A DNA stretch of 64,000 bases, taken from IMG/VR virus record IMGVR_UViG_3300006329_000001, positions 98,718 to 162,717 of that record; one strand, 5' to 3'. Made by a program: the position numbers and the translations under genes. Source of the DNA: a virus. How positions within the stretch are numbered: position 1 is the first letter of the stretch; every line of letters begins with the position of its first letter. Positions 18,780-38,900 of this stretch are shown piece by piece. A model generated the notes under the pieces. It had not been told where the DNA came from. It saw only the letters and a program-made list of their open reading frames with translations, and did no database searches.

Positions 18780-18998
18780 TTAATCTAACCAAGAATCGTT
18801 TTCTGTAATCTTGAGTAGGTTGGGATTCTTTCGAACCTCATGTTGATAGTCTAACTCTTTATACAACTTATTGAGCAACTTTGTAACATAAGTTGATCTC
18901 TCTAATTTGTGTGATAATGAGAGTAGTTCCTCAACGTGCTGTTTACATTTTACAAGTGTAAAACATTCTTGGGTTGATACATCTATTTTACTATCCAT
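18780..18998 (-). CDS. Hypothetical protein
   Basis: MDSKID...; overlaps the upstream oxygenase stop. Confidence 0.6.
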   Translation of the reverse strand: MDSKIDVSTQECFTLVKCKQHVEELLSLSHKLERSTYVTKLLNKLYKELDYQHEVRKNPNLLKITENDSWLD

Positions 18999-19560: not shown

Positions 19561-20192
19561 GCTATATCTCTCCTTATCTCTTCTTGAGTTGGGATATACT
19601 TATTACCTGTTAACCTAAAGTTAGCAGATATAGTAATACGTTTATGTTCTGATTTTTGCATACTTACTTGATGATGTTGGTAGGCAGGGAATATAATAAT
19701 ATCCCCTTCTTTGACCTCAGGAAACCATGTAGTATGTACTGGGTAGTATTTACTAAAGTTACCTAAATGTACCTTTTGGTCAGGATGATAAAATATAAAA
19801 TTAGCATCCTCCTCAGGTATATAGTCTAAGAAATATGCACAACTAAATGTACAATCATCCCCACCTGCGTGAGTATGTACATCTTGCATATCTCCCTGAT
19901 TATATACATTAATCCATGACTCAAACATACTTATTCTATTGTTGACATCACCACCTAATTTCATGTGCATATCCATGAGACTATCTTGTATTGCCTTCTC
20001 AAAAACATCCCATGAAAAGTCTGTTAGATTTGTATTACTATCAAAACTGGATGATAGGTTACAATTCCACTCACTTGGATTATTTAATTGTGCATCATCT
20101 AATTCTTTAAGAAATAATCTCTTAAGGTATTGATGACTTGGCACTTCTCCATGATAATAAAATCCTGGAAATAGTGCCTTAATGTCTCCCAT
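19557..20192 (-). CDS. Putative 2OG-Fe(II) oxygenase (TIGR02466-like)
   Basis: WINVY..GDMQDVHTH, EGDIIIFP...HQV, RITISAN. Confidence 0.85.
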   Translation of the reverse strand: MGDIKALFPGFYYHGEVPSHQYLKRLFLKELDDAQLNNPSEWNCNLSSSFDSNTNLTDFSWDVFEKAIQDSLMDMHMKLGGDVNNRISMFESWINVYNQGDMQDVHTHAGGDDCTFSCAYFLDYIPEEDANFIFYHPDQKVHLGNFSKYYPVHTTWFPEVKEGDIIIFPAYQHHQVSMQKSEHKRITISANFRLTGNKYIPTQEEIRRDIA

Positions 20193-21419: not shown

Positions 21420-21478
21420 ATTGTACCAATAAAAAAGCACCTGTGTAAAGGTGCTTGTGACAGTTACTTAATTGCTAC
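21420..21478 (-). promoter_or_regulatory. Early-type promoter for the helicase operon
   Basis: TTTACA-N18-(TGG)TACAAT with a degenerate upstream box pair at the same spacing as the other copies. Confidence 0.6.
21430..21456 (-). terminator. Rho-independent terminator
   Basis: AAGCACC/GGTGCTT stem followed by a U-tract on minus strand. Confidence 0.7.
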
Positions 21479-22239: not shown

Positions 22240-22587
22240 CTATTTATTCTCAGGTTCTTTACCAGTTATTTCTTTTGGCAAATCCTCATTTCCAGGATGT
22301 TCTCTTATATAACCAGTATAATTTTTCTTGTTGTGGAAATGGGTGTCCTCCATCCATAAATCATCCCATTGATGTGCATAAACTAATACTTTTACCTGTC
22401 TCTTGCCGTTCATAGTCTCTGGGTCATCCCACTCATGTGTAACGACAGTAATATATTGATCTGATATGAAATCAATATAACCTTCCTCTCCGTCAGGTGT
22501 CTTGACTCTCATACCCTTCTCAAGTGACTTGAGTATGTTTCTTAATTCCAATCTTACAGACTCCGATAGAAAAATAGGTGTACTCAT
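22240..22587 (-). CDS. Hypothetical protein (SH3-like beta barrel)
   Basis: GMRVK..GEEGYIDFISDQYITV. Confidence 0.7.
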   Translation of the reverse strand: MSTPIFLSESVRLELRNILKSLEKGMRVKTPDGEEGYIDFISDQYITVVTHEWDDPETMNGKRQVKVLVYAHQWDDLWMEDTHFHNKKNYTGYIREHPGNEDLPKEITGKEPENK

Positions 22588-23189
22588 AATTTTAGTAGTG
22601 AAGTTGGATTACCAAAATCACCCTTAAGAAATATATTAAATGCTAGTGAGTATCTCTCTCGCATTATTTGATTAGGTGTAACTAGATGCACTAAAGAACT
22701 GGGGAACATTACCACCATGCCATCCTTAGGTTGTATTGTCCATTGCTTACTATTATATAGATTACCTGTTTTGATACGAGGTGCAACCATACAATAAGAT
22801 TGATCTCTGAATACTAAATCACCACATCTTTCATGTGTTTGTAGATAACAAATACCACTAAACATGCTGTTGCGGTGGGAATGGTCATGTGTTTTCTCTT
22901 GGAATTTATGTCTATTAATCCATGAGCAAGTATATGTTATTTCATGACATCTTTCATCAATTCCTAATACTTTCCATACATATTCTTCCACATGATATTG
23001 TAACCAATCTCTAAATTTAGGTAGTTTATTCAGAACATTCATTTCGAATGTCTGACTACCTTCTCTTGGTGCTTTGTGATACTCCCATCCCTCAATGTCT
23101 CTAATAATATTAGGCATTGATGGGTCTTCTGCAACATATACAGGGGATGAGAACAGAGGTAGTATATCAGTTCTTACTGAAGTTCGCAT
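22584..23189 (-). CDS. Putative 2OG-Fe(II) oxygenase (TIGR02466-like)
   Basis: WIN..HSH.NSMFSGICY, FPSSLVH, RYSLAFN. Confidence 0.88.
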   Translation of the reverse strand: MRTSVRTDILPLFSSPVYVAEDPSMPNIIRDIEGWEYHKAPREGSQTFEMNVLNKLPKFRDWLQYHVEEYVWKVLGIDERCHEITYTCSWINRHKFQEKTHDHSHRNSMFSGICYLQTHERCGDLVFRDQSYCMVAPRIKTGNLYNSKQWTIQPKDGMVVMFPSSLVHLVTPNQIMRERYSLAFNIFLKGDFGNPTSLLKL

Positions 23190-23655
23190 TGATTAGAATC
23201 CTATTCTTGTGTTCACTTGGAGAATGACCAGTATGTTCTATCTTGCCATCAAATAATAATAGTCTGTTCGCTTTCGGTTCTACTTGCCATGTAATTCCTT
23301 CTTCTTTTAGTAGGGTGTTGCCATCACTATCATTAACATAGTATATACACACCCAATGTGGTTCTTTCTCATCAACGTGCCACCCATGTCTATACCCATT
23401 TGGATTAAGTATTGTCATGTCTGCTCTAACCCTCAAGACATTTCGGGCATTTAGGGCAGATTCCATCATTTCTACGAGGTGTGCAAATATGGGGTGTTCC
23501 TCAGCAGTTAACCAATGATTAAAACCAAATGCTTGTAGGTCATCATTACCATAGGTTAAAGTTTGTTGCATAAACCAAGGGAACTCCCATGATGTCATGT
23601 AATCATGTAGTTCTTTCCATTTGTCATGATCGAGGAAGTTATCCTCAATCTTCAT
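23167..23655 (-). CDS. 2OG-Fe(II) oxygenase (HxD type)
   Basis: WHVD, IYYVNDSDGNT, NRLLLFDG..EH, RILINAN. Confidence 0.88.
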   Translation of the reverse strand: MKIEDNFLDHDKWKELHDYMTSWEFPWFMQQTLTYGNDDLQAFGFNHWLTAEEHPIFAHLVEMMESALNARNVLRVRADMTILNPNGYRHGWHVDEKEPHWVCIYYVNDSDGNTLLKEEGITWQVEPKANRLLLFDGKIEHTGHSPSEHKNRILINANFSKN

Positions 23656-23821
23656 GCTTGAGATGTAAGGCGGACGCAATTTCATCTATCAGTTCACGTT
23701 GTTCTTCTGGAAGTTTTCCCAACTTATTATACCATTCTTTTTGTAATAAGAAAAGTGCCTTAGTTAATGTTTGTTTATGCTTCTGCTGTAGAGTCAAACA
23801 CTCTACTGCTATTGATGTCAT
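23645..23821 (-). CDS. Hypothetical 58-aa helical protein (not in ORF track)
   Basis: MTSIAVECLTLQQKHKQTLTKALFLLQKEWY...; overlaps the next start. Confidence 0.55.
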   Translation of the reverse strand: MTSIAVECLTLQQKHKQTLTKALFLLQKEWYNKLGKLPEEQRELIDEIASALHLKHED

Positions 23822-23849
23822 GATGCCCCCACATGCGGATTAATACTAT

Positions 23850-24548
23850 TTAGAATAGTTGATACGATTCCCGATCACTACACTCACACCTCTTAGGACA
23901 CCAGATAGGTACTGATATTGAGAGTCTCTTCTTAGAGGGATATGCTTTGTGTAGTTTCCTTTGTGGCAAGTATAGCACATCTCCCGCTTTAAGCACAGTA
24001 TCCAACTGAATTGTTAGTTCATCCTGACTTGGTACATGTGGGTACTCTTCTGTGCTTGGTATCAATGCACTTGCTCTGTTCTCATACACTACCCATCTAG
24101 TCTCACCATCCATCTGCATAATATAAGTTGGACCTTGATCCCAATGTGGATGAAATGATTTTGCTTGTGGTCTTGTACCTAAGTTCATAAAGATATGACA
24201 GTCAGCACACCCATCAAATCTAGTCTCGAACTCAGTTAATAGTTCTTCTACCTTACTATTACCATGACCATACTGTGATATATTTACTGTCCATCCATCC
24301 TTTGCATACGCAAATAGATCAGTCTTCTTATATACTCCCTTATAAAACCATGGTTCTTCTACTGTCTCTAAATCTATTCTCTTACCATCATCACCTAATA
24401 CTGTAGTGATGTAATTCCATGGGGCATTTAGGGCATTTTCTGCATCCTCCCATGTGACTATCTGACCTACAGCATTATGCCATACTCTAGGTTCATCATT
24501 ATATTTGTAGACCTCAGGGTCAAGAAATTCGTAGTTTAAAATTGACAT
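23850..24548 (-). CDS. JmjC/cupin_4 (ROXA/YcfD-like) oxygenase
   Basis: SFHPHWD..YIMQMDGETRW, L.AGDVLYLP...H. Confidence 0.85.
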   Translation of the reverse strand: MSILNYEFLDPEVYKYNDEPRVWHNAVGQIVTWEDAENALNAPWNYITTVLGDDGKRIDLETVEEPWFYKGVYKKTDLFAYAKDGWTVNISQYGHGNSKVEELLTEFETRFDGCADCHIFMNLGTRPQAKSFHPHWDQGPTYIMQMDGETRWVVYENRASALIPSTEEYPHVPSQDELTIQLDTVLKAGDVLYLPQRKLHKAYPSKKRLSISVPIWCPKRCECSDRESYQLF

Positions 24549-25050
24549 TCATTGCAATCCTAATACCCTGTGTAGGTGATGATGAAGCATGGATCTCTGA
24601 TCCACCGAATACTATCATCTTACCTTTAAGTGGTGACTCTCTGTGAATAATTTTATGATCCTTATCAAAGAAAAATGTATCACCCTCTGCTTCATTGACA
24701 TAATATAATGCAGTAGTGTGATCGAAATCATAATCTGTATGTGGTGCATGATGTAGCATACCATCAGGATAACATAGTCCTAATCGTACACGATATATGT
24801 CCTCCACTCTTGCATCACATTTCTCTGCAATGCAATATAATGCACTCTCAAATAATCCTGTCTGTTCACTAACAGGTTGATACTCATCTATTAATTGATG
24901 AGAGAATGACTGTGCCTTGATACCATCATGACTGTCTGCAACTTGATATGTAGTATCATCTAACCAATACCATGGAAATGTAGGGTTACGACAAATACTG
25001 TCCAGTTGATTAACTATAGGTTCTGGTAACGTATTAAAAACGGATTTCAT
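24520..25050 (-). CDS. 2OG-Fe(II) oxygenase (HxD type)
   Basis: PHTD, LYYVNEAEGDT, HASSSP, RIAMNVN. Confidence 0.88.
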   Translation of the reverse strand: MKSVFNTLPEPIVNQLDSICRNPTFPWYWLDDTTYQVADSHDGIKAQSFSHQLIDEYQPVSEQTGLFESALYCIAEKCDARVEDIYRVRLGLCYPDGMLHHAPHTDYDFDHTTALYYVNEAEGDTFFFDKDHKIIHRESPLKGKMIVFGGSEIHASSSPTQGIRIAMNVNFKLRIS

Positions 25051-25738
25051 ACTGTCTCCTATCACTTGGTACATCACGAGGATATGCACATGGTATGCTC
25101 ATACTTAATCTCTTACCACCTGGAAATGGTTTATGGTATGTCCTCGCAGGGAAATACATTACATCACCTGCTTCTAGTGTAACGTCAAGATCAACTGTTA
25201 GGTTATGTCCTTCATTATCAGGACTATATGGGTTGTCATCCATCTTAATTAATGCACTACACCTCTCTTTATATACTTGCCAGTGTGTTTCTCCTTCTAA
25301 CTGACATATAAAATTGGGTGGTAAATCCCAGTGTGCACCAAAGGATACACCATTTGGTTTAGCATTACCAAATATATGTGCATCACAATTACAATCATAT
25401 CTGTCCTCTATATTTTCTAATAGATTATCTACTGCTGCATTAAAATGTCCATACTGTTCTATAGTAAATGTTAACCCCTCCTCAATACCTTGGAACAGTT
25501 CTTCCTTAATAGGAAACTTATCTTCATACCATACCTCAAACTTCTCAGTAAGGTCTAGTCTCCTACCATCAGTATTGAGCAAGCAACATCTATAATGCCA
25601 TGGGTTATTCATGCACTTGGTTACATCATCCCATGTACAATACTGTTCGGGATTCTTTAATGCACCTTTCCAGACTCTTGGTCTATCATCTGTCTGGAAT
25701 ATATTTGGATTTAGAAATGGTAAATTAAGAACTTCCAT
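25034..25738 (-). CDS. JmjC/cupin_4 oxygenase, paralog of 23850-24548
   Basis: SFGAHWD..FICQLEGETHW, LEAGDVMYFP...H. Confidence 0.85.
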   Translation of the reverse strand: MEVLNLPFLNPNIFQTDDRPRVWKGALKNPEQYCTWDDVTKCMNNPWHYRCCLLNTDGRRLDLTEKFEVWYEDKFPIKEELFQGIEEGLTFTIEQYGHFNAAVDNLLENIEDRYDCNCDAHIFGNAKPNGVSFGAHWDLPPNFICQLEGETHWQVYKERCSALIKMDDNPYSPDNEGHNLTVDLDVTLEAGDVMYFPARTYHKPFPGGKRLSMSIPCAYPRDVPSDRRQYEIRF

Positions 25739-26363
25739 AGTCTCCTTCACTTGGGTCTAGTGGGAACCCACTAAAATTTATACTAATAGCAATGCGTTCA
25801 TCTTTGCCATTTGGTTGTGTCTCATGATATAACCATGATGGGAATATAACATAATCATATGATTTTGCTTTATATGTATAATGTTTCTTATCGTTAATAA
25901 AACTAGATTCTAGAGGTGACATACCCCAAATAGTTTCTAGTGGATCACGAAATAATAAATGACCATAGTCAGGGTTCTTCTTAAGATAATATACACATGA
26001 TACATGTGACTTACCTCTACCTGCTGAGTGATTATGCTCTGATGTAGTATCTCCTTCGAAATGCTGATTCGACCACATACTGTCAATATACATGTGGAAG
26101 TCTCTGCGATAATCAAGAGTATTATCCCAGTAATCATGTACTTCATCTAACATAGGCATGGTTAACCAATCAAATGTAGGTGATTGATACAATTCCATTC
26201 CTTGTTTTAGTTCACCAGTTGATTTACCTGATTCACCTGCCCATACACCACGATTAGCAACTGACCATGCTTCATCTAAGAATGATAGTGATGCTGTCAG
26301 TTGTTCATCAGTTGGTACTATCGTTCCCGTCACTACGGGTACCGAGAATAGTTGTTCTATCAT
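25725..26363 (-). CDS. Putative 2OG-Fe(II) oxygenase (TIGR02466-like)
   Basis: WSN..EHNH..VSCVYY, FPSWLYH, RIAISIN. Confidence 0.88.
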   Translation of the reverse strand: MIEQLFSVPVVTGTIVPTDEQLTASLSFLDEAWSVANRGVWAGESGKSTGELKQGMELYQSPTFDWLTMPMLDEVHDYWDNTLDYRRDFHMYIDSMWSNQHFEGDTTSEHNHSAGRGKSHVSCVYYLKKNPDYGHLLFRDPLETIWGMSPLESSFINDKKHYTYKAKSYDYVIFPSWLYHETQPNGKDERIAISINFSGFPLDPSEGDYGSS

Positions 26364-27024
26364 GACTTTTAATAATATCAGACATATCTCTTTTGTTCCT
26401 GTTCGGAATCAAATTAAATGAGATACTAATACGATCTTCATCAGTATGGTTCTCTCTCACACCATGAGATACCCATGATGGAAATAGAACTAATCGACCT
26501 TCTTTTGGTGGATAAGACATAGTTGCATGAGTATGTGGTGCTTCTGCCTTACTCAAATCCTCTGCTAATCCGAGAGAATGAACTACATATCCCTCCATAG
26601 GATTCTTATGGAATGTGATACTACCACAATCCCCTTCCTTAGGAGTCTTGACATAAAATGCACCAGACATTATAGAACCTGGATGCACATGTACCTCATT
26701 GTATCCTCCCTTATTATTAATATTAATCCATACGTTAGCAAATTCCAACGTAGTAGCACATGACTCAAATGAATCAAATGCTTTATTACCCCAGTGTTTA
26801 ATTTGTCTGCATAAATTAGCAAACTCATCATCCTCTGGTTCTTGCACTAATTCCTCACCAAAAAAGTCAGGGGACTGATAATTCAGTATTCCCCTGTTAC
26901 TTCTTTCTTTTGTAGGCATACCCTCAGCAATACCATAACATATTTCTTGCATTGCTGCTACATCAATATCTAAATCCAACCACCAAATAGGAGTGGGGAA
27001 AATATAATCAAGATTGAGATCCAT
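26308..27024 (-). CDS. Putative 2OG-Fe(II) oxygenase (TIGR02466-like)
   Basis: WININ..GGYNEVHVHPGS..SGAFYV, EGRLVLFPSWVSH, RISISFN. Confidence 0.92.
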   Translation of the reverse strand: MDLNLDYIFPTPIWWLDLDIDVAAMQEICYGIAEGMPTKERSNRGILNYQSPDFFGEELVQEPEDDEFANLCRQIKHWGNKAFDSFESCATTLEFANVWININNKGGYNEVHVHPGSIMSGAFYVKTPKEGDCGSITFHKNPMEGYVVHSLGLAEDLSKAEAPHTHATMSYPPKEGRLVLFPSWVSHGVRENHTDEDRISISFNLIPNRNKRDMSDIIKSHDRTTILGTRSDGNDSTN

Positions 27025-27581
27025 TAGGTCAACTTGTTAAGATCGTCTCTTACTTCTCCTTGCCAATCTGATAATTTACTATAGTCTTTCTTCTTAGTTG
27101 CACTATCTGAGTACTTAGAGGAAGTTGCTACCTTGATATTACTTCTCTCCTTCGCCATTTCAGATTCTAACCATGGTTGCTCAGGTTCTTTAAGTACAAA
27201 CTTACGATACATGTTGATAGTCTCAAGACCACCTTCGATCTTAACCAAATCATCCCTCATTTCATTGAGTTCAGTGAAATTGATTCTAGTCTCAGGTCTA
27301 TCGAATGACATGGATGTCATACCTTCTTGCATCTCTTGATACTTAAGGAACATTTCTCTATGCTGATAGATAAGATTCTTCCATAAGTCATCAAGTGTTT
27401 GCACTGCTTCATATGCAGTTTTTACTTCTTCTATTACCTCAGGGGGCAATTCGGGCAATCCTAGGTCTTCTAAATCCTGATTTATATTTTCTGGATCGAG
27501 ATTAGTTGGTGCACCACTGGGGTTAATACCATCTACCTCAGCATCCTCAAGGTTAGTTACCTTTTTTACATCTTCTGACAT
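27024..27581 (-). CDS. Hypothetical acidic coiled-coil protein
   Basis: 185 aa, coupled on both sides. Confidence 0.7.
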   Translation of the reverse strand: MSEDVKKVTNLEDAEVDGINPSGAPTNLDPENINQDLEDLGLPELPPEVIEEVKTAYEAVQTLDDLWKNLIYQHREMFLKYQEMQEGMTSMSFDRPETRINFTELNEMRDDLVKIEGGLETINMYRKFVLKEPEQPWLESEMAKERSNIKVATSSKYSDSATKKKDYSKLSDWQGEVRDDLNKLT

Positions 27582-27582
27582 T

Positions 27583-29163
27583 TTACTCCTTATAAATGGT
27601 CTGGTTTAAAAACTCGTAAGACGAGGGTAAAGTCTCACAATATTCTAGCATGTGTTGGTGCCACTCGTCAATGATCTTCTCTGCGTTGGTGAGTGCTTGC
27701 TCATCCTCCTCAGGAATTATCTCATTGCACATCCTTGATAAAGGTAGTGTCACTTTATTTATAGGATTAAATCCCATACCTGCTGCACAATATCTGGGTC
27801 CATCATTATACTCTATGCTACCAAGATTTGTTAAGAAATCAAAGTTTATGTACTTATGTGACCCATAACGCATGAATAGGTTGTCAGTACCACAGAAATC
27901 ATAGTCCACCACCTCTGATGCTGTCCTCCAGAAATCTGTCTTACGTTCAGAGAAAGCATAGTGAGCAGCAACGAAGTTCTTATGTCCTTCTATCTCATGG
28001 TCTGCTATCTGATTAATCATTTCCTTTTCTACCTTAGGAATGAACCCCCTACGTCCTGATAGTGCATTACATAATCTAATCACTTGTTCATGTGTAACCA
28101 ACAGACCAGTGGACTCTAATGGTTCTACAAAACAATTAGATAAACCAACAGCAATAACATTACCAACAAATGATTTCTTATGCTTACCCATCTTAAATGG
28201 GATAGTTCTATATGATACCTGATCTGCTCTATACTTTCCTCTTGTCTTTACCAAATAATTATGCAACTCTACTTGTGCTTCATCTTCTGATATAAAATTA
28301 CTAGAGTAAACATATCCTAGTCCACCACGTTCCCACAATGGTACATCCCACACCCATCCATTATCTAATGCTGTACAGTTGGTTGTATTAGTAACTTCTT
28401 TCTCAGGATTTTCATGTGGTACTGATATTGATATTGCTTTATCATTTAATAGGCAACCTCCATCATTATAATGGAATGACTCAAAGGGTACATCCATTGC
28501 TTCTCCTAATAGCAATGACTTAAACCCACTGCAATCTACAAATAGATCAGCACTTAATGTCTTACCATTATATACTACACAATCAATATCACCATTCTCT
28601 TTTTTAATTACTCCCGTTACTGTACCCGTAATATGTTTTACTCTCTTACATACATTATTCTTTAACCACTGTCCAAACTTAATAGCATCTATATGATATG
28701 CAGTATCAACCCATGGTTTCCAATAGGTAGTATCATATGTGAGTTTATTATATTTGGTGAAGTGTGCTACTGGATTAAATGTAGTAGCAAATGTATCGTT
28801 AGTATATTTTCCTGGTTTAGTTGCATTAAGTACGAACCATGCCATCCATGGAACTTTACTTTCCATCTCATCTGGTGATCCAAAGGGATATAACCAACTC
28901 TCTCCTTTCTTCCAAAAGTCATTAAAACTAATAGCAGTTTTATAGGTTGCACCTATATCTTTCATCCAATCAGAATCTTTGAGTCCTAATAATGATATAA
29001 ATCTACGAATCTGTTGTAGTGATGACTCACCCACACCTATAACACCCTGATTTGGATCCTCAATTAATGTGACGTTAACATGAGGGCATAGCACATCCAA
29101 TGCTGCAGCAGTCATCCAACCACTACTACCACCACCAACAATAACTATGTCCTTAACTTGCAT
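27583..29163 (-). CDS. Flavin-dependent (tryptophan-type) halogenase
   Basis: GGGSSG FAD motif, GVGES, catalytic ATYK, GWVWDVP, FVEPLESTG. Confidence 0.93.
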   Translation of the reverse strand: MQVKDIVIVGGGSSGWMTAAALDVLCPHVNVTLIEDPNQGVIGVGESSLQQIRRFISLLGLKDSDWMKDIGATYKTAISFNDFWKKGESWLYPFGSPDEMESKVPWMAWFVLNATKPGKYTNDTFATTFNPVAHFTKYNKLTYDTTYWKPWVDTAYHIDAIKFGQWLKNNVCKRVKHITGTVTGVIKKENGDIDCVVYNGKTLSADLFVDCSGFKSLLLGEAMDVPFESFHYNDGGCLLNDKAISISVPHENPEKEVTNTTNCTALDNGWVWDVPLWERGGLGYVYSSNFISEDEAQVELHNYLVKTRGKYRADQVSYRTIPFKMGKHKKSFVGNVIAVGLSNCFVEPLESTGLLVTHEQVIRLCNALSGRRGFIPKVEKEMINQIADHEIEGHKNFVAAHYAFSERKTDFWRTASEVVDYDFCGTDNLFMRYGSHKYINFDFLTNLGSIEYNDGPRYCAAGMGFNPINKVTLPLSRMCNEIIPEEDEQALTNAEKIIDEWHQHMLEYCETLPSSYEFLNQTIYKE

Positions 29164-30739
29164 AAATCTTTCTTAACGTATAATCGTATGACGATTCCAT
29201 ATCCTTTGTCCAATCATACATGGTCTTCCTCCATTCGTCAAATGTCCTATCTGCTTCATTTAGATAGAACTCATCATAATCCTCAGACAGATTATTCATC
29301 AGACGCTTGAGGTATAGAGTATGGTCACAAATAGGATTAAATCCCATACCTGCTGCTATATATCTGACACCATCATTATGTGCAGGATCACCGATCCACT
29401 CATATGATACATGCTTCTCTGCTGAGTATTTGACAAATAGATTATCTAATCCACCCTCTGTGAAATTATATGATATATCATCTGTTACTGTCTGCCAATA
29501 TTTACCTTCTCTTCTACTGAAAGCATAGTGAGCAGAAATAAATGTCATGAAACCATCTATCTCTAGGTCTGCTACTAGATTCATCATATCTATTTCTGCT
29601 CTATTAGTATATCCTTCTCTACCTGCTAGAGTTGTACATAGTCTAGTGATCTGTTCATGTGTAGTTACTAAACCAGTTGCTTCTAATGGTTCTACAAAAC
29701 AATTAGAGAGACCAATAGCACATACATTCTTTACCCATGACTTCTCATGCTTTCCATTCTTAAATGGAATAGTTCTCATGGATGCTTTGTCTGCTCTCTC
29801 CTTTCCTCTTGTCCTAACCAAATAATCATATAGCTCTTGCTCTGGATTCTCTGCGAAATCCTTTGAGTACACATATCCTACACCAGATCTCTCCCATAAT
29901 GGTACATCCCAGACCCAACCATTATCTATAGCAGTACAGTTAGTGCTATTGGTTATCTCTGTAGATGGGTCTACATGGGGCATGTGACACGCTACAGCAG
30001 TGTCATTTAGCAATGAACCCCCATCATTATGGTGATAACTAATAAATTTAGATCCACATGTCTGTTCTAATAGTAGAGACTTAAATCCTGTACAATCAAT
30101 ATATAAATCTGCTTCGAACTCTCTACCATCATCCGTGTATAATTTCTCAATATAACCACGGGCATCTTGGGCAAATTTAGCAACATTACCCGTATGATAT
30201 TCCAATCCTCTTGGCAAACAATAGTTATCCTTTAACCACTGTCCAAACTTAAGTGCATCAAAATGATATGCACTGTCCACCCATGGGTTCCAATGGGTTT
30301 CATCATCACTTAATTTATTATACTTAGCTAATGCACCTACACTATTAAAACACTCAGCAAATGTACCCCTGTGATATTTCTCAGGTCTAGTTAAATTTAA
30401 TGAGAACCATGACATCCACCCATGTGGTACTTCCTTCAGTACTTTCTCAGCACTACCGAATGGATAATCCCATGTCTCACCTTTCTGATAGAAATCATTA
30501 AATCTTATATTTACCTTATAAGTTGCACCAGTCGCTGCCATCCACTGTTCATCTTTTAAGTCCAATAACTTAAAAAACTCGTTGATCTGTCCGAGAGTAG
30601 ATTCCCCGACACCACTAACAGGGTAGTCGGGACTCTCGATCAACGAGGTTTTAATGTGTGGGCATAATTTTAGGAGTGCTGCAGCAGTCATCCAACCTGC
30701 AGTTCCACCCCCAACAATGAGGACATTACGAATTTTCAT
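29153..30739 (-). CDS. Flavin-dependent (tryptophan-type) halogenase, paralog
   Basis: GGGTAG, GVGES, ATYK, GWVWDVP, FVEPLEATG. Confidence 0.93.
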   Translation of the reverse strand: MKIRNVLIVGGGTAGWMTAAALLKLCPHIKTSLIESPDYPVSGVGESTLGQINEFFKLLDLKDEQWMAATGATYKVNIRFNDFYQKGETWDYPFGSAEKVLKEVPHGWMSWFSLNLTRPEKYHRGTFAECFNSVGALAKYNKLSDDETHWNPWVDSAYHFDALKFGQWLKDNYCLPRGLEYHTGNVAKFAQDARGYIEKLYTDDGREFEADLYIDCTGFKSLLLEQTCGSKFISYHHNDGGSLLNDTAVACHMPHVDPSTEITNSTNCTAIDNGWVWDVPLWERSGVGYVYSKDFAENPEQELYDYLVRTRGKERADKASMRTIPFKNGKHEKSWVKNVCAIGLSNCFVEPLEATGLVTTHEQITRLCTTLAGREGYTNRAEIDMMNLVADLEIDGFMTFISAHYAFSRREGKYWQTVTDDISYNFTEGGLDNLFVKYSAEKHVSYEWIGDPAHNDGVRYIAAGMGFNPICDHTLYLKRLMNNLSEDYDEFYLNEADRTFDEWRKTMYDWTKDMESSYDYTLRKIYAS

Positions 30740-30754
30740 AATAAAGGATTAAAT

Positions 30755-31429
30755 TTATCCTACATCAGTAGTTATACGATCATCAGAGTCAGGTGCATGT
30801 GATGTTGGCACATCAGATCCACTTACAACATCTGGATTAGTATCCACTGCTTCTGTGACAGGTGCTTGAGTTACAGGTTGTGCATCAACATGATCTGAAC
30901 CTGTTGCTACATCACCACGATCAGCAAATTCACAAAGTTTAAACTCTCTGCGAACACCAATTTCCATTTCCTCTGGAGTATTCCAAGCGGGCATGTTGTC
31001 ATCATGTGGGAATGGTTGATCTGGTTCTTCTGCTACTCTTTCAGTAACAGTTGCAGCAGGGTCTGCAGGGTCAACTACTTCTATCTCTTTCCATGTGATA
31101 GGACGTGCTTCTGATTTAACTTTCTTAATGTGCTGATAGAACTTACCTTCTTTAGCTTTCTCACCAAAGAGACCTGCATCTATATCTTTCCAGAGCATTC
31201 CTAATTGAGTACCTGGTTCACCATAGGCAATAAGTTTCTCTTGCAATGGATCTGTGTATAAGAAGTCAGGGATCCACTCTCCTAACATCATTCTCCATTC
31301 GATATCTACCTCGTCAGGTGCATCAACCCATTTAAGTGAAGATCCTGGACCTGTGTAGACTTCGAACTCTTCGCCTTTCTCGACGATATCGGTAATGAAA
31401 CCGTCTGATCTAATTAAACAACTTTTCAT
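30755..31429 (-). CDS. Putative tail-fibre-associated/assembly protein
   Basis: Y..PGTQLGMLWKDIDAG..GKFYQHIKKVK resembles phage fibre accessory proteins; follows Gly-rich fibre genes. Confidence 0.45.
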   Translation of the reverse strand: MKSCLIRSDGFITDIVEKGEEFEVYTGPGSSLKWVDAPDEVDIEWRMMLGEWIPDFLYTDPLQEKLIAYGEPGTQLGMLWKDIDAGLFGEKAKEGKFYQHIKKVKSEARPITWKEIEVVDPADPAATVTERVAEEPDQPFPHDDNMPAWNTPEEMEIGVRREFKLCEFADRGDVATGSDHVDAQPVTQAPVTEAVDTNPDVVSGSDVPTSHAPDSDDRITTDVG

Positions 31430-31430
31430 T

Positions 31431-32231
31431 TTAATCGAATTCGTAAACTACTACAATACCCTGACGACCATCGCCACCTCTCTCACCGTTTCTTCCAGAT
31501 GAACCACCTGCACCGTATGCAGCATGTGATCTGTAACGCTGAGCCCATTGCTGTCTCCTGTGGGTAGTAGGAGACGAACCGCCCCAGAAACTTGTACCAC
31601 CATGTCCTAAACCTGGTGGGTTTCTGTGTGCCTGACCTGAACCACCATAGATTCTAACAGAACCTTGATTAGGGTTACCACCCAGTGATCCTTCATGTTG
31701 TTGGTTCCTGTTAGCACCTTGTCCACCACCTGATGAACAATAGTTACCAAAGGATGAAGTACCTCCATTACCACCACGAGACTGGTAATTAGTACCACCA
31801 CCACCGCCACCAACAGAGACGGAAATGGAGTTAATGTTTTCTACATTAACAATACTTTCGGTGTGTGCACCTGCGGATCCAGATTCACCATAACCTGATC
31901 CACCGCCACCACCTGCAGTGCATTTCACCCATATACGCTTAATTCCACTGGGTTTGTTCCATGTGGAATTAGAGTTATATACACTGATTGATTTTGGTCC
32001 ACCACCTGCTTCGATCTGACCCCATGACATTGATGATCCGTTAGTAGTAAGAAACTTACCTGACTGACCCGATACTGATGGGATAACCTGTGATGAAGAA
32101 CCTGATATGGTTCCGTTGATGTTGATGTTGGATACGGTTAGAGTACCATTCACTGTAATAGAACCAGAACTGAGGTCTAAACCACCAGAACCAGAAAGGT
32201 CTCTAATTGCCGATACTTTGAGGGTACTCAT
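31431..32231 (-). CDS. Glycine-rich tail-fibre-like protein A
   Basis: MSTLKV start, GQSGKFLTTNGS..SW motif, TWNKPSG...GGGGGG...GIVVVYE Gly-rich domain. Confidence 0.7.
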   Translation of the reverse strand: MSTLKVSAIRDLSGSGGLDLSSGSITVNGTLTVSNININGTISGSSSQVIPSVSGQSGKFLTTNGSSMSWGQIEAGGGPKSISVYNSNSTWNKPSGIKRIWVKCTAGGGGGSGYGESGSAGAHTESIVNVENINSISVSVGGGGGGTNYQSRGGNGGTSSFGNYCSSGGGQGANRNQQHEGSLGGNPNQGSVRIYGGSGQAHRNPPGLGHGGTSFWGGSSPTTHRRQQWAQRYRSHAAYGAGGSSGRNGERGGDGRQGIVVVYEFD

Positions 32232-32255
32232 TGATTACTCTGTCTCCTTCCTTGT

Positions 32256-32263
32256 TATTTATA
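32256..32263 (-). promoter_or_regulatory. T4-type late promoter TATAAATA
   Basis: Exact motif, followed by AAGGAG RBS for 31431-32231. Confidence 0.75.
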
Positions 32264-33067
32264 CTATAAAAATTCATAGACAACTATGATACCTTGGCGA
32301 CCATCGCCACCTCTTTCAGGGTTCTTACCTGATGAACCACCTGCACCGTATGCAGCATGACCCCGATATCTTTGTGCCCACTGTTGTCTTCTATGGGTTG
32401 TTGGTGAAGCACCACCCCAAAAACTACAACCACCATGTCCTAAACCTGGTGGGTTTCTATGTGCTTGAGAAGAACCACCATAGATTCTAACTGAACCTTG
32501 GTTGGGATTACCACCTAATGCACCTTCATGTTGTTGGTTACGGTTTGCACCTTGACCACCACCTGATGAGCAGTAATTACCAAAGGATGAAGTTCCTCCG
32601 TTACCACCACGAGATTGATAATTGGTACCACCACCTCCACCTCCAACTGATACTGAGATAGAGTTAATGTTGGTTACATCAACGAATGATTCGGTGTGTG
32701 CACCTGCTGCACCTGACTCTCCATATCCTGAACCACCTCCTCCACCTGCAGTACACTTAACCCAAATACGTCTGATGCCACTTGGTTTATTCCAAGTAGA
32801 ACTTGAGTTATATACTGATATAGAGTTTGGTGCTCCTCCACCACCTGATACAGCAGACCATGATATGCTTGATCCGTTAGTGTAGAGAAAACTACCTGCT
32901 TGACCACTTTGTGAGGGAATTATATACCCTGAGGATCCACTTATAGTTCCGTTGATAACCAATTTATTGACTGTTAACGAGCCATTAGCAGTGATCGCTC
33001 CACCAGAGAACGACATACCGCCTTGGTTAGATAAATCCTTTACTTGTGCGACATTTAAACGAGTCAT
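32264..33067 (-). CDS. Glycine-rich tail-fibre-like protein B (paralog of A)
   Basis: C-terminal ~190 aa nearly identical to 31431-32231. Confidence 0.7.
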   Translation of the reverse strand: MTRLNVAQVKDLSNQGGMSFSGGAITANGSLTVNKLVINGTISGSSGYIIPSQSGQAGSFLYTNGSSISWSAVSGGGGAPNSISVYNSSSTWNKPSGIRRIWVKCTAGGGGGSGYGESGAAGAHTESFVDVTNINSISVSVGGGGGGTNYQSRGGNGGTSSFGNYCSSGGGQGANRNQQHEGALGGNPNQGSVRIYGGSSQAHRNPPGLGHGGCSFWGGASPTTHRRQQWAQRYRGHAAYGAGGSSGKNPERGGDGRQGIIVVYEFL

Positions 33068-33807
33068 TGGTTATGATTTAGCTCCTTCCTTCTATTTAGC
33101 TGAGTAGGACTTATATGTTGTAACGGTTGTACCTTAAAAGCATATTTACCGTTATCTATAATTTCTGGTAAGAAATTCATACTGATAGTTCTTCTACCCT
33201 TCCAAAGATTATATATTGCTTCATATCCATGGAGCATCTCAGCGTTCCAGATGAATAACATACCCTCTTCGGGTGAGGATTGGTGAACTTCCTTTGTATA
33301 TTTATTACCTTGATTTGCTATGCGTGGTTGACGCATCTGTGACAGACTGGGTACACTGTCCTTATATGTACTTCTGTAGAAATCTAATGGTGCATGTAAT
33401 TTTGGATCGAAATCCACAAAGTATGTACCAACTATCATACAGTTATTATGATTATGCTTGATCTGCCAAGTGTGCTCTGTCTGGCACATGTTCATCCAAC
33501 AGTCTGTGATCAGCATATTAGATTCATTTAGATCATACTCTAATAATTCAGTAAAGAAATGAGTAGATGATTCTAAAAGAAAATTCTCAAAATCATTTAA
33601 CCTATCATCAAACCTTAATAAACTACTATTAGAAATATTAAAGTAATGATGTAGATTCTCTTCGGCAACGTTGTCGTTCCACTCATCATGTCCTTTAGGT
33701 ATTTCCTCAAGAACACGATCACATACATCTTTTACGACCTGTTGGTCACCACCATACCTATATTTCCCAATAAACTTGGGAAAAAATTCCTCAATCTCAA
33801 AATCCAT
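33064..33807 (-). CDS. Putative 2OG-Fe(II) oxygenase (TIGR02466-like)
   Basis: WMN..KHNH.N, EEGMLFIW...LH, RRTISMN. Confidence 0.8.
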   Translation of the reverse strand: MDFEIEEFFPKFIGKYRYGGDQQVVKDVCDRVLEEIPKGHDEWNDNVAEENLHHYFNISNSSLLRFDDRLNDFENFLLESSTHFFTELLEYDLNESNMLITDCWMNMCQTEHTWQIKHNHNNCMIVGTYFVDFDPKLHAPLDFYRSTYKDSVPSLSQMRQPRIANQGNKYTKEVHQSSPEEGMLFIWNAEMLHGYEAIYNLWKGRRTISMNFLPEIIDNGKYAFKVQPLQHISPTQLNRRKELNHNQ

Positions 33808-33810
33808 AGT

Positions 33811-35070
33811 TTAGAAATTATGTTGATTAGTCGATAAGAGATAATAGTTACCTATCGAATACGCTCCACCATCATTAAATCCGATGTTAGAGAGGTTTTT
33901 AAGGTTATTACGAGAACCTCCGTACATATTTAGATACCCGTCAGCAGAGTAATCCCCGTTGGGTTCTGAATGTGTATTGTCTCTTAACCACCATCTACCA
34001 CCATCTGTAACTCTCCAGTCATGAGTATTGTTACCACCATAATCAGCAGATCTCATGATCCTTCCAGTATAGTTGCCCCCGCCACCAGTCTTGTAGACAT
34101 CACCACAACCGACAAAGAAGTTTGGCCAGTTGCCACCATTAACTATTGTAGCATAGTTTGCTGCTGCTCTCCATGCATACTTTGATCTGCCATAGAACAT
34201 ATCAAGTCCTAAGTCAGCACCAGTATGGTATTGTCCATGATAATTAATGTTTCTACCACTACCATTAACAGGATAGAAATCATATCCACCACCATCTTCA
34301 GTAGCATCAACATACATCTGAAGTGGATTAGGCATGGAATGTGACTGAACCCAATATTGTCCACTGGTCTGTACAGCACCATATGCCACACCAAACTTCC
34401 CAGATTCCATAGCGGACTCTGGACTGGATCCATTTCCGAAATTTAATTCTGAGGCATTAACAACTCTAATACGAGAATGGGAAATATAATATGCTTCGTC
34501 TCCTCTACTCTGGTTAAGATCCGTTCTATGATCCACCTGCACACTTGCAGATGTATGAGGAATCCATCCAGATGAAAATCTTAGATAACACATAGTGCCA
34601 TCATTAGAACCGTTCCATGGTTCATAACTATAGTCATTATCACATCTACACAATAGGGTTGCACCACCTGTTACTGATCTATCATGGTTCCCTACTAATT
34701 CTCTAAATCTATTCTCATTCCACTGCTTTCGCCAGTTAGCAAATCTATTACCATCAATATTAATATGCTGATACTCATTATCCCATGAGTCTACATGGTG
34801 GATAAGACAATCATAAGATAGGTATTGATGTGCAGGGAGTCCACCTACATTAAGTTGATATGTACGTCCTGAACCACCCCAACCATGCCAGTATCCACCA
34901 CCACCACTATATCCTGGCGGTGTAGGACTAACTGACATCGAGGAAGTTTCAGAATAATTCCAGTTACTTATATAATTTCTTACATCATTTCCTTCATCAT
35001 ATACTGTCTCTCTTCGGACTGATCCTCCACCAGCTCCACCAGTTACAATTTTCGCAATTCCAATAGGCAT
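33811..35070 (-). CDS. Putative receptor-binding/lectin-like fibre protein
   Basis: Trp/Gly/Asn-rich; fibrinogen-like SGQYWV...YVD..EDGGG motif. Confidence 0.55.
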   Translation of the reverse strand: MPIGIAKIVTGGAGGGSVRRETVYDEGNDVRNYISNWNYSETSSMSVSPTPPGYSGGGGYWHGWGGSGRTYQLNVGGLPAHQYLSYDCLIHHVDSWDNEYQHINIDGNRFANWRKQWNENRFRELVGNHDRSVTGGATLLCRCDNDYSYEPWNGSNDGTMCYLRFSSGWIPHTSASVQVDHRTDLNQSRGDEAYYISHSRIRVVNASELNFGNGSSPESAMESGKFGVAYGAVQTSGQYWVQSHSMPNPLQMYVDATEDGGGYDFYPVNGSGRNINYHGQYHTGADLGLDMFYGRSKYAWRAAANYATIVNGGNWPNFFVGCGDVYKTGGGGNYTGRIMRSADYGGNNTHDWRVTDGGRWWLRDNTHSEPNGDYSADGYLNMYGGSRNNLKNLSNIGFNDGGAYSIGNYYLLSTNQHNF

Positions 35071-35072
35071 GA

Positions 35073-35930
35073 TTATTCAGTATATTGTACTTGGTTTCCA
35101 AATACGTTCCAACTTTCGCCATCAACGTAGAAGAAGTAGTTTATAACATCCCATCCACTTCCAGAACTAGGTGGTGATGCATACATTGTAGTAGTATTCT
35201 GTCCATTTATATTTACATCATTTACAGTACCAGTACCATTTACCTGTTTTATAATTATCTGTGCAGTATATACGAAACCACCGACATTAGGAACATTGTT
35301 AAAGTTAACTGAGAAGTTACCATTATAACCTGAGGGGTTAGTAGTAATAAAAATTGTTCCTTGACTATGATCTAGAGTAACACTACCACCCTTACCAAAT
35401 CCTATGAAATTTTCTTTTGTTTGTCCAAACTCAAGTGTAGAACCTGGAATTAACCTTAAGTGTTCATTGACACCAATGTTGTTAAAATATCTGTATGCAG
35501 TTAGATCTTCGTCAGGACCAATAATTGTCCATGTTGCACCATTCTCAATAGTAACAGTGTAACCGTTTGCAATAGTAATAGGAGCAGCAGTGAAACCGTT
35601 TGTAAATTCTACACCACCGTTAGCTGTTGGACCAACTGTAAGATTCTCTGATATTGTAGTTCCGTTGGTTCTAATAATAGAATTCTCACCAACTGAGGGA
35701 CCACCACCACCTACGCTATCCCAACCAGGTGAACCAGATACATCTTGTTTCCATATCTGTGCTTCATCTTCTGTAGAGTTATATACTAACGTTCCATAAG
35801 CAGGAGTACCAAGTGCATTAACTGCTGCTTGGTTAAGTTCTGGCAGATTAAGTTGCTCTGTAACTGTTAGAGCAGTAACAATCGCTCTAGTTGCAGCATC
35901 AATCTGGTTTCCAATAATCTTTGTTGACAT
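35073..35930 (-). CDS. Tail-fibre-like structural protein
   Basis: GTLVYNST..W...GGGGPS...IIRTN..ISENLT fibre motifs. Confidence 0.65.
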   Translation of the reverse strand: MSTKIIGNQIDAATRAIVTALTVTEQLNLPELNQAAVNALGTPAYGTLVYNSTEDEAQIWKQDVSGSPGWDSVGGGGPSVGENSIIRTNGTTISENLTVGPTANGGVEFTNGFTAAPITIANGYTVTIENGATWTIIGPDEDLTAYRYFNNIGVNEHLRLIPGSTLEFGQTKENFIGFGKGGSVTLDHSQGTIFITTNPSGYNGNFSVNFNNVPNVGGFVYTAQIIIKQVNGTGTVNDVNINGQNTTTMYASPPSSGSGWDVINYFFYVDGESWNVFGNQVQYTE

Positions 35931-35945
35931 AATCCCCTCGTGATG

Positions 35946-38900
35946 TTATATAACCAGTTCACGAATCTGAATAACGTCACCAGTTGCAGGTGGAGCAGAT
36001 ATACTAAAGTCAACAGCATTACCTGTTACTGTATAGTCCACACCAGGAACTTGAGCGACACCATTTAGAAATACTAAAAGTGAGAAAGCAGTGTGTCCAG
36101 GCGAAATGTTAAACGTCTGTGTTGCACCATTTCCATTATATGTAACACCGTTATTGCTATTTGCAATACCAGTTGCTAAAGAGTATTTATCTGCACAACC
36201 GTATTTACCAGTAACATCTAAGTCACCAGAAATATAAGTGTTACCACCAATCTTCATCCTGTTGGATGCGTCAGGTGACATACCAATACCATAATGAGTT
36301 ACACCACTGTATCTGTTAGATGTAATAGGTGTAGTATCACTCAATCCAATCTTGTACCATACACCAGTATCATACACCCATCCGAGTGATTGACCAGGTG
36401 CCCAGTCAATGTTATAACAAATGTCACCATTGTTAAAAGCTAACCCTGACTGTAGGTCTGGTAGTCCATTAAGTTCTTCTGCTAGGAATGTCTGCTTCAG
36501 AACTGTACCATCAGTGTTAGAGTAAGTGTACTTAAGTGACTGTATCTCATCTGATGATGTGACTTTCTTCTGGAAAGTAACAGGACCAGAGAATACTGAT
36601 TCTAACTGGTTAGACGCACCACCGATTACGGTTAGTTTGTCAGTTAAAACCAATTCAGAGAACGTTTCGATAGTTGTGTCCTCTTCACCCAACACGTTAA
36701 GTTGAGCAATATCTTCGTTAGTGATCTGACCTGTAACTGGGTTAATAACCTGGTTACCAACGAACAGTTCACCATCACTGTTAACACCAGAGTAGTATGC
36801 CACACCTGCTGCTTCCTTAAGTGACTGTGATAGTCTGACCTGTTGTGGTGATAGAACCTCAACCTGTGTAGATGGGAATGCAGTAGAGTAGTTACCTGGA
36901 CCAAATCCAAGATACTCAAACGTGTGACCTGATGCTCTCAGAATTGAGTACCTTCGTAACTCAACCTGTAGCGGAGCAACAGACTGGTCTGGATTTAATT
37001 TCAGTGCTATCTTTCTTTCTTCCTCATCACCTAAACGTGCAGTAACAACTATACTATTCAGTACGTTAGATGTAGTGTTATATCCTAAGTTATTTTCAGT
37101 CTCTAACAGTATAAACTGTGTAGTTTCCTTCGTAATAGATAACTGTTTGTTCTCATTAGGTGTTGGAGTAGCACCATCAGTGGTCTTAACTACACCCAAT
37201 ACTTCATTATCAGCAATAGAAACAGCAGGTGCAGGGTCAGCAACTGGGTTGTCTCTGTCAAATGCAGGGTAGATATCTACAGTCTGTTGTGAGAATGCGA
37301 AGTCATCAAAGTTAGATGTTGCAGGTGATACTGACGCTGATAGTAGAGTCAAATAATATATACCATCCTGTACACCTCGAATAAACTCTTGGAATGTTTC
37401 TACGTCGTAGATGTAGTAAGTTTTGCTATACGAAGGAGAGTTAGTTTCACTAGAGCGAGGCTGAAGTACGAAACCAGTAATGGGCGGTCTAGGGATTGGG
37501 AAAGCGTCCTTATCAAGGATGTATCTAAATCTGTATGTTCTGTCATTTAAGTCACGAGCGTCGGGTACACGACGGATAAAGGTAGTAGGAGTAAATCCTA
37601 GGTTTTGATACAAGTTATTAGCTTGTAGTGTGGTGTAAATGGTATTAGCGGAACTATCTACCTGAATATACCACTGTCCCCTATTAGTATCATACTTAAT
37701 AGGTGATTCATCATCACCTGCTCTAGTACCTGTAACTTCAGGACCAGCAGGGTTGATGTCTGCATAGTGTGTAGTAGGTTCACTAGCACCTGATGCAATC
37801 AATGCAACATATAATCTGTCGGGAGTATTAACGTCATCTCTTCTTGCACCAATAGTATAACCCTGAATCTTAGAGGGTGGTCTTCCTAACTGACTGGTAT
37901 ATCCATAAAGATACAGTCTAGTGGAGTCTGCCTGTGATCTTGTTGATGCAATATCAATAGTAACCCAGTTAATTGAGATCTCATCTACATCACTAAGTGA
38001 TTTAGGTGGTATAACATGAGTTAATTGACCTGCTTTATCTTTTGTAAAAGCAGTTGCTTTAAATCCTTTACTTCTGAGAGAAGTGTTACCAAAGTTTGAG
38101 TTTGAGTTGGTGATAGAGAGGTCACCGCCTGAGTCGGAGAAGAAATGATCACCGAAACCAACAGCGAACACCGAGACGACTTGGATAAACGCATCATTTG
38201 ATGCTTTAATGTGACGATGCCTCCAACTCTTTCTGTATTCGGCAAGTCCATTAATATGAGCACCAGATCCCGCAGCTTGGGGTTCATATGCTCCAGTACT
38301 TTGGTTGTATAGTACGAATGCTCTGTCATCTTTCTGCAGAGAGATACCAGTGAACTGAGCAACAACCATGGACTTAAATCCAGTTGCTTCAGCACCATCT
38401 GCGTGCATACCATTGATACCCCAAACTGATCTTAGAGAACAGTTAAAGACATATGGTGATGCTGAGTCAACTGTGTCAATTTCGACCTTAACCAGAATAT
38501 TGGAACCGATAGCATTACCTGACGGTTCAGTTGACATTTGATAAGTGAATTGGTTACCCTGAGCAGACGTTACCAAGAACGAACCATTATAGAGGAGCTG
38601 ATCCTGCTCAGTAGGACCAGTAACCCCAGATATATTAACAGCGACACCCACGGAGAATCCATGATTCTTCGGATTACCGAGTGCGTCAACTGTGAATGCT
38701 GTGGCGGTTTGTCCATTTCTTATGATTTGTGAGATAGCAAATTCGTCAGATATAGGACCAACAATTCTGTTTTCCTCAACCCTTACCTGTAACTGGTCTT
38801 GTGCGACAACACCTGATGAGTCAGGTATAGTAGCGTATGCTTTAGATATCTTCTGATAGTATAGTTCTAGGTCAGTAATATTAGCAAACTCAAAACACGT

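Follow-up and report, generated by a model that had tools for sequence, protein, structure and literature searches.

Why do two flavin-dependent halogenases and a run of Fe/2-oxoglutarate (2OG) oxygenases stand directly behind the fibre genes of a cyanophage, and on what could they act? The question is raised by a 64,000-nucleotide stretch of viral DNA (IMG/VR record IMGVR_UViG_3300006329_000001, positions 98,718 to 162,717; hereafter the window), whose source record of 162.7 kb is estimated to be 87% complete. Region 22584-35070 of the window has 95.8% DNA identity to the cyanomyovirus P-RSM6 (NC_020855, 151000-163435), in which every gene matching the region carries an annotation. An original prediction, made from the sequence, saw here two halogenases, two JmjC proteins and six further oxygenases that would tailor the adjacent fibre proteins. 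Pfam and PHROG scans, by which gene families were assigned, returned this same enzyme count, and every open reading frame (ORF) from 39518 down to 22240 lies on the minus strand, as had been claimed, in the order tail fibre, 285-aa protein, 419-aa protein, Oxy_5 oxygenase, two Gly_rich_2 proteins, the accessory protein PRE, two halogenases, a 185-aa protein and seven oxygenases. The region represents, in the form found in P-RSM6, a conserved module of cyanomyoviruses with fibre, PRE, halogenase and oxygenase genes, in which PRE bears a tryptophan-containing tail wherever it adjoins a halogenase on the same strand.

The enzyme array itself is already published (Syn9, Iyer 2010; VirX1, 2019), and prnA-like halogenases were noted in cyanomyoviruses in 2005 and 2010. 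Iyer et al. (2010) read the array of Syn9 as a source of halogenated secondary metabolites (PMC2938197), and Sullivan et al. (2010) tied the oxygenases to 2OG/nitrogen status or DNA repair (PMC3037559). Among the papers returned by full-text searches, we found no title or abstract that ties these enzymes to fibre genes.

Linkage of the halogenases to fibre genes

In the isolates S-SZBM1, S-WAM1, Syn9, P-TIM40 and S-RIM44, the gene order is fibre, two to three Gly-rich genes, PRE, halogenase(s) and oxygenases, and at least five genera are represented among the isolates whose VirX1-type halogenases adjoin Gly-rich fibre genes. With a VirX1-like halogenase profile we retrieved 80 IMG/VR loci, 58 of them with at least 4 kb of upstream sequence; Gly-rich homologues are present in 47/58 and PRE in 44/58, and PRE, where present, always lies between the Gly-rich genes and the halogenase. 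The anticipated synteny of halogenase and fibre genes was thus found both in isolates and in metagenomic loci. Adjacency is kept in the convergent layouts (L078, L086, L089), and several of the apparent exceptions turn out to carry related genes: L047 and L088 have convergent Gly-rich triplets of divergent sequence (ORFs of ~315 aa) and a fibre gene, in L080 the enzymes are surrounded by a giant fibre and by proteins of 29-31% Gly, and L023 and L043 contain Gly-rich ORFs. Among 50,697 phage records, phages with a VirX1-like halogenase are essentially the only ones to have PRE and the Gly-rich subfamily of the window, and the JmjC gene is found in largely the same set of records. The distant halogenases of P-SSM2 and S-MbCM6 (25-31% identical) are placed elsewhere, among metabolic genes.

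Three further observations concern the architecture of these loci. A second arrangement (L047, L078, L086, L088, L089) has up to eight oxygenases and three to four halogenases converging on a fibre operon that ends in three Gly-rich genes of ~315 aa, and its PRE homologue, if present, is without the Trp tail. Halogenase-linked loci usually have two to four tandem Gly-rich paralogues, and the halogenase-free loci retrieved with a short-PRE profile have one. The S-RIM44 records (KX349291-97, NC_047734) comprise two genome types under one name, those of ~197.5 kb with the VirX1-like halogenase, Gly-rich and PRE module and those of ~193 kb with only a distant Syn1-like halogenase.

PRE and its Trp-bearing tail

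PRE consists of a conserved N-terminal domain (~residues 1-107) and, after it, a C-terminal extension in which one Trp is nearly invariant. In its AlphaFold2 (AF2) model (mean predicted local distance difference test, pLDDT, 83), residues 1-53 form the strands of a beta-sandwich and residues 61-107 form helices. The top Foldseek match is gp25, a chaperone of phage Pam3 (7ypx_a), at a weak E of 0.19, with TfaMu in seventh place; gp25 is also the second match by VIA, again weakly (Z 4.1, root-mean-square deviation (rmsd) 2.2 over 49 aa). The model therefore weakly suggests a chaperone-like protein, not a proven chaperone.

The extension follows the presence of a same-strand halogenase closely. 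All 56 of the 56 PRE proteins with an adjoining halogenase on the same strand bear it (55 encoded upstream of the halogenase and one just downstream), where it reaches 20-110 residues past the conserved domain and contains motifs such as MPAWNTP, LPAWKRYPGW, DPAWNHLP and AVLAWN; in the window's PRE the Trp is Trp149, and gp40, the PRE of Syn9, has PCWKRYPGW in its tail. PRE of four halogenase-free isolates from four genera has no extension and ends right after the domain. As a control set, the short-PRE profile retrieved 67 further IMG/VR loci, none with a halogenase within 6 kb, and in those with a Gly-rich neighbour (~40) PRE has no Trp tail and ends 0-4 residues after the domain. This association of the Trp tail with a same-strand halogenase, as seen in the predicted proteins, is a new observation, and it turns guilt by association into one defined, bench-testable peptide. 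A complex prediction for halogenase 1 with PRE residues 112-180, run without controls, gave a score of 0.00 and speaks neither for nor against binding.

A conserved segment of Gly-rich protein A (TWNKP, residues 89-94) and the PRE tail (AWNTP, 147-153) have the pattern W-x-x-P in common, with W-x(2,3)-P in the tails of other PRE proteins; the resemblance may be due to chance, or the tail may imitate the fibre segment.

Fibre-tip proteins, halogenases and oxygenases

Gly-rich proteins A and B are 82% identical to each other and match PF21722 with 35-37 bits (cut-off 24.3). A sequence search of the PDB with protein A returned no match, and the relationship emerged only via fold search: the AF2 model of protein A (pLDDT 84) matches the Pam3 fibre protein gp24 (7ypx_A) with a Z of 21.6 and an rmsd of 2.4 Å over 179 aa at 26% identity, and by Foldseek with an E of 6e-8, followed by Bxb1 tail-tip proteins and the ALK glycine-rich domain. 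By their modelled fold, which combines a tumour necrosis factor (TNF)-like and a glycine-rich receptor-binding domain as in gp24, the Gly-rich proteins are fibre receptor-binding proteins, in agreement with their original designation as fibre proteins. No fusion of the Gly-rich domain with an oxygenase or halogenase was found among five longer relatives, which is weak evidence.

The two halogenases, 53% identical to each other, had been described as intact, and both retain the GxGxxG motif (GGGTAG/GGGSSG at residue 10), the TYK Lys at position 75 that is equivalent to PrnA K79, WVWDVP and EPLE; these positions are invariant among 42 relatives. The best solved relative is VirX1 (6QGM) for halogenase 1 (E 8e-105, residues 2-528) and halogenase 2 (E 3e-106, residues 2-524) alike, and PDB 5UAO is also among the solved relatives (E 9e-43). 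Neither a flavin reductase (PF01613) nor an adenylation domain was found in the 162.7-kb record, and a Pfam scan of the 18 minus-strand genes (22240-39518) showed no synthetase or exporter families, so that the predicted lack of a scaffold enzyme and of a flavin reductase extends from the window to the whole record. A host reductase would consequently have to serve the halogenases.

The Oxy_5 proteins score 38.8-96 bits (PF13759 cut-off 27), and the oxygenase that had been placed between fibre genes belongs to this family by Pfam. In the five Oxy_5 proteins of the window that were compared (the four of Table 1 and 19557-20192), HxH, the distal His, Arg and Asn are invariant, a His replacing the acidic ligand (HxH...H + Arg, not HxD/E...H). 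Their nearest solved relatives, 2RG4 and 3BVC, are both uncharacterised, and no member of the family has a known substrate. The two Oxy_3 matches of the run lie at or below the Pfam cut-off (27.1 and 25.9 against 27 bits) and contain HxD and a distal His, and by sequence no solved structure is related to them. For the JmjC proteins, NO66, MINA53 and YcfD are the nearest solved relatives (E 5e-9 to 1e-4), and HxD...H is present; both phage proteins end just past the JmjC match (232 and 238 aa, the solved enzymes having 373-489 aa), and the C-terminal dimerisation and winged-helix domains of YcfD, NO66 and MINA53 are absent from them.

For 23167-23685 and 24520-25089 we considered the label 'DNA endonuclease V', given to them in RefSeq and PHROG, and rejected it; the Oxy_3 match and the HxD/distal His pattern suggest small 2OG-oxygenase-like proteins. 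At 18991-19560 there is likewise a small phrog_274 protein labelled 'DNA endonuclease V' with an Oxy_3 match near the cut-off, HxD and a distal His, and denV, as a label in cyanophage records, appears to have been inherited as a misannotation.

Transcription signals

An exact late promoter had been reported before Gly-rich protein A. On the minus strand the motif TATAAATA does stand at 32256-32263, with the ATG at 32231 following 24 nt later, but it shows no enrichment in the window (6 found, 7.6 expected), and its promoter function is putative. Across the loci we surveyed late-promoter-like motifs (TATAAATA, NATAAATA, CTAAATA) within 60 nt upstream of each gene. They precede 55% of PRE genes, 50% of the 185-aa family, 47% of fibre genes and 27% of Gly-rich genes; the halogenases, at 16%, are at background (other ORFs 15%), and the oxygenases (1%) and JmjC genes (0/39) are nearly without them. 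By Fisher's test, the enrichment before PRE has a p of 1e-11 and the depletion before oxygenase and JmjC genes a p of 6e-14. Having almost no motifs of their own, the oxygenase and JmjC genes would depend on upstream promoters.

No strong minus-strand terminator was found before 21456. The hairpin at 21435-21456 is overlapped by a sigma-70-like promoter (TTTACA-18-TACAAT at 21449-21420, extended -10) directly before the helicase gene, and 21420-21456 seems to be where the late run gives way to an early-type unit. The supplement of PMC7238727 contains ortholog lists and no expression class for these genes; we infer the late timing of the module. Gaps under 35 nt had been claimed throughout the run, which is correct if a 58-aa ORF (23645-23821) is counted, but otherwise one gap measures 164 nt.

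On what could the enzymes act?

The recurrent linkage and the Trp-tail association together support, at the level of sequence, a functional tie between the halogenases and the Gly-rich fibre and chaperone-like module, and it is because of both that we would connect the halogenases with fibre assembly. Our preferred reading, to which we assign a probability of roughly 0.4, is that the enzymes act on the fibre or chaperone-like proteins in late assembly, the PRE Trp tail or the fibre tips being the best candidate target. The enzymes would be made late, alongside the fibre proteins, and would have a protein and not a small-molecule scaffold as their target. The halogenase, supplied with flavin reduced by the host, would halogenate the Trp in the C-terminal extension of PRE; alternatively, the extension would dock the halogenase onto the nascent fibre tip. 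The hydroxylases would hydroxylate side chains of the same clients. A tentative generalization is that VirX1-type halogenases might be protein halogenases of fibre assembly, with the PRE Trp tail as their natural substrate or as a tether of halogenase and hydroxylases to nascent receptor-binding tips.

Several observations weigh against action on the fibre and chaperone-like proteins. Direct evidence of modification was observed nowhere. The LC-MS (liquid chromatography-mass spectrometry) table of S-SZBM1 virions lists homologues of the 1190-aa, 728-aa, 444-aa and 285-aa proteins (among them the 1192-aa homologue of the 1190-aa tail fibre, and S-SZBM1_51, the 285-aa homologue, by one peptide), and it has no entry for the Gly-rich gp48/gp49, for PRE (gp47), for the halogenase or for the oxygenases. 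Eight tryptic peptides of Gly-rich protein A would be suitable in size; that gp48/gp49 are not listed could be due to low copy number or to modification of their peptides. No Trp is conserved only in the Gly-rich proteins of halogenase-bearing phages, and Trp91 of the Gly-rich proteins is also present in halogenase-free relatives. As to PRE, the convergent loci L078, L086 and L089 have adjoining halogenases and a PRE tail without Trp, and the AF2 model has a pLDDT of ~90 around Trp149, a region of such confidence that the Trp could be structural; a purely structural role for Trp149 is possible on the strength of the model. What the tail co-varies with could also be the Gly-rich subfamily and not the halogenase, and the loci come from related phages, so that the counts are not independent events.

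The linkage, too, has its limits. L040 looks like a true exception, with no fibre genes nearby, and the VirX1-like halogenase of S-B64/S-H35 lies in the replication module. A sister subfamily of 269-aa 'gp38' Gly-rich proteins is common, together with a short PRE, in records without a VirX1-like halogenase (111 records). This rules out a perfectly nested pattern in which Gly-rich genes occur only with the halogenase, and it implies a one-sided dependence, of the enzymes on the fibre module or on its location and not of the fibre module on the enzymes. Within the 3' end of halogenase 2, shortly ahead of the 185-aa gene, three elements follow one another on the minus strand: a sigma-70-like 11/12 match (TTAACA-18-TATAAT, 27834-27805), an exact TATAAATA (27763-27756) and a hairpin of 5 bp with TTTTT after it (27625-27608). 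A transcript could start or end here, and the oxygenase run could have one of its own. The proposal of a shared late transcript agrees with the scarcity of motifs before oxygenase and JmjC genes and their presence before fibre and PRE genes, and this promoter-like pair and hairpin may count against it. Finally, 11 Oxy_5 (PF13759) and several Oxy_3 genes are spread over the genome record, many of them far from fibre genes.

Such a spread, which includes the oxygenases beside the helicase at 17-20 kb, is what would be expected if the halogenases and oxygenases were auxiliary genes gathered where the late fibre operon borders on an early hypervariable region, their adjacency to fibre genes reflecting shared ancestry and a permissive site and their targets belonging to the host, such as its ribosomal or further proteins, its nucleic acids or its 2OG pool. 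We regard this as possible, if doubtful. Halogenase-free phages have small hypervariable ORFs directly after PRE, so that the enzymes occupy a known boundary; ribosomal proteins are the substrates of YcfD, NO66 and MINA53, the hydroxylases to which the JmjC proteins are closest among solved structures; in the literature the oxygenases figure as enzymes of DNA repair or 2OG turnover (PMC3037559; PMC9146016); and the elements at 27.6-27.8 kb could give the oxygenases their own transcript. A gathering of cargo does not, however, account for a Trp tail exactly where a same-strand halogenase adjoins PRE, for VirX1-like halogenases being almost never found elsewhere, or for an adjacency that survives the convergent layout.

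The successive hydroxylation and halogenation of an amino-acid-derived metabolite of the infected cyanobacterium seems unlikely to us, although the Syn9 array has been so interpreted in print (PMC2938197), and clusters of jumbo cyanophages in a similar way (PMC7824862). VirX1 acts on many small aromatics in vitro (PMC8407142), and bacterial relatives are found in clusters with TonB-type receptors and peptide synthetases (PMC2938197). However, given the lack of an adenylation domain in the record and of a synthetase or exporter among the 18 minus-strand genes, about a dozen tailoring enzymes would stand without a scaffold enzyme, which is unusual, and both the fibre linkage and the Trp-tailed PRE would be left unexplained.

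That mature virion fibres, chiefly the 419-aa protein (33811-35070), are the substrates and keep their modifications in the particle is very improbable: the protein does contain the predicted 14 Trp, its family is annotated as virion structural protein, one oxygenase adjoins its gene and Gly-rich proteins of L078 and L086 have a related domain as a fusion, but it is the best match of only 5 ORFs across the 80 metagenomic and 9 phage-record loci and, being found in so few halogenase loci, cannot be a general substrate, and no homologue of it was detectable in S-SZBM1, S-WAM1, Syn9 and P-TIM40, all of which have the enzymes.

If the enzymes do act on the fibre and chaperone-like proteins, the fibres or the chaperone would carry halogenated Trp and hydroxylated side chains affecting adsorption or host range, and abundant ocean phages would chemically edit their receptor-binding apparatus and so add a new layer to how host range is determined. 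A virus protein would for the first time be known to be halogenated, and what VirX1 naturally acts on would be identified; it would also represent a new class of protein halogenation, of biocatalytic interest.

Features of the region

The coordinates are collected in Table 1. Homologues of the 185-aa protein occupy the same position in related loci (20 ORFs). The module limits first given (22584-35070) describe the run correctly but do not enclose all oxygenases, which are also found beyond them (17045-20192, 8854-9489, 47405-48010), those at 17-20 kb beside the helicase being of the same families as in the run. Outside the window there are at least five Oxy_5/Oxy_3 genes (for example C1:16119-17110, 27018-27320, 31822-32109 and 3831-4073).

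Table 1. Genes and signals of the fibre, PRE, halogenase and oxygenase module, in window coordinates.
Feature	Coordinates	Strand	Family and remarks
Tail-fibre protein, 1190 aa	35946-39518	-	phrog_529, E 0; upstream context of module
Fibre-region protein, 285 aa	35073-35930	-	phrog_29506; syntenic in many loci
'Virion structural protein', 419 aa, Trp/Tyr/Asn/Gly-rich, 14 Trp	33811-35070	-	phrog_15727
2OG-FeII_Oxy_5 oxygenase between fibre genes	33064-33807	-	PF13759, E 1.2e-9; phrog_81; conserved HxH...H + Arg
Gly-rich fibre-tip (receptor-binding) protein B, 267 aa	32264-33067	-	PF21722 Gly_rich_2; phrog_863
TATAAATA, T4-type late-promoter-like motif	32256-32263	-	putative function
Gly-rich fibre-tip (receptor-binding) protein A, 266 aa	31431-32231	-	Gly_rich_2 / phrog_863; TNF-like + polyglycine domain (model)
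PRE, chaperone-like accessory protein, 224 aa	30755-31429	-	phrog_1787
Trp149 codon of PRE (motif MPAWNTP), candidate halogenation or docking site	30983-30985	-	
VirX1-type flavin-dependent halogenase 1, 528 aa	29153-30739	-	PF04820, E 1e-96
VirX1-type flavin-dependent halogenase 2, 526 aa	27583-29163	-	PF04820, E 7e-95
Acidic, helical 185-aa protein	27024-27581	-	no Pfam/PHROG match; between halogenases and oxygenase run
2OG-FeII_Oxy_5 oxygenase	26308-27024	-	PF13759, E 1.9e-27
2OG-FeII_Oxy_5 oxygenase	25725-26363	-	PF13759, E 2.1e-14
JmjC_2 catalytic-domain protein (MINA/NO66/YcfD clade), 238 aa	25034-25750	-	PF08007, E 6.3e-16; HWD140, H206
Oxy_3-like (P4H-like) small oxygenase	24520-25089	-	PF13640, 25.9 bits; phrog_274; HTD117, H167
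JmjC_2 catalytic-domain protein, 232 aa	23850-24548	-	PF08007, E 1.3e-18; HWD135, H200
Oxy_3-like small oxygenase	23167-23685	-	PF13640, 27.1 bits; phrog_274; HVD103
2OG-FeII_Oxy_5 oxygenase, last of run	22584-23189	-	PF13759, E 1.4e-21
Best intrinsic-terminator-like hairpin downstream of run	21435-21456	-	8-bp stem then TTTTATT

The seven oxygenases of the run follow one another as Oxy_5, Oxy_5, JmjC_2, Oxy_3, JmjC_2, Oxy_3 and Oxy_5.

Comparison with known systems

The closest published array is that of Syn9/Syn10 gp41-gp54 (PMC2938197), which has the same order, two Trp-halogenases and then tandem divergent 2OG oxygenases including a JmjC protein of the MINA/NO66 clade. It differs from the window in having more oxygenases in the run, and the paper, which also mentions a Cys protein of dUTPase fold, draws no connection to fibre genes or to gp40. 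VirX1 of Syn10 (6QGM) is trimeric, with a large open active site and a preference for iodide, and halogenates many small aromatic compounds in vitro, among them 6-azaindole, which it iodinates with a kcat/KM of ~0.18 per µM per min, no natural product being listed (PMC8407142). By sequence the window halogenases match VirX1 over their full length and keep GxGxxG, the Lys, WxWxIP and the Glu, but they are only ~39% identical to VirX1 and its Syn9 counterpart.

In Pam3, the fibre protein gp24 (PDB 7YPX; PMC9608196) has the receptor-binding domain, TNF-like and rich in glycine, in common with the window's Gly-rich proteins, and the gene of gp25 follows directly after gp24, just as PRE follows the Gly-rich genes. 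The halogenase module differs in its two to four tandem fibre paralogues, and the N-terminal part of the window model is of low confidence. Unlike PRE, gp25 is without the Trp-bearing extension, and Pam3 is without a halogenase. Among protein hydroxylases, YcfD/RoxA, NO66 and MINA53 are the closest solved relatives of the phage JmjC proteins and have HxD...H in common with them, the phage proteins consisting of the catalytic domain only.

A further parallel is offered by the pathways of ribosomally synthesized and post-translationally modified peptides (RiPPs). SrpI, a halogenase of such a pathway, halogenates a C-terminal Trp of SrpE, and PDB 5UAO, the solved relative mentioned above, is MibH of NAI-107, a RiPP-pathway Trp halogenase. 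RiPP pathways differ from the phage module in their leader-peptide machinery, protease and exporter, and the candidate substrate in the phage is a folded chaperone-like protein. What the two have in common is a halogenase gene that stands beside the gene of a ribosomal polypeptide with a conserved Trp near its C-terminus, as it does beside PRE.

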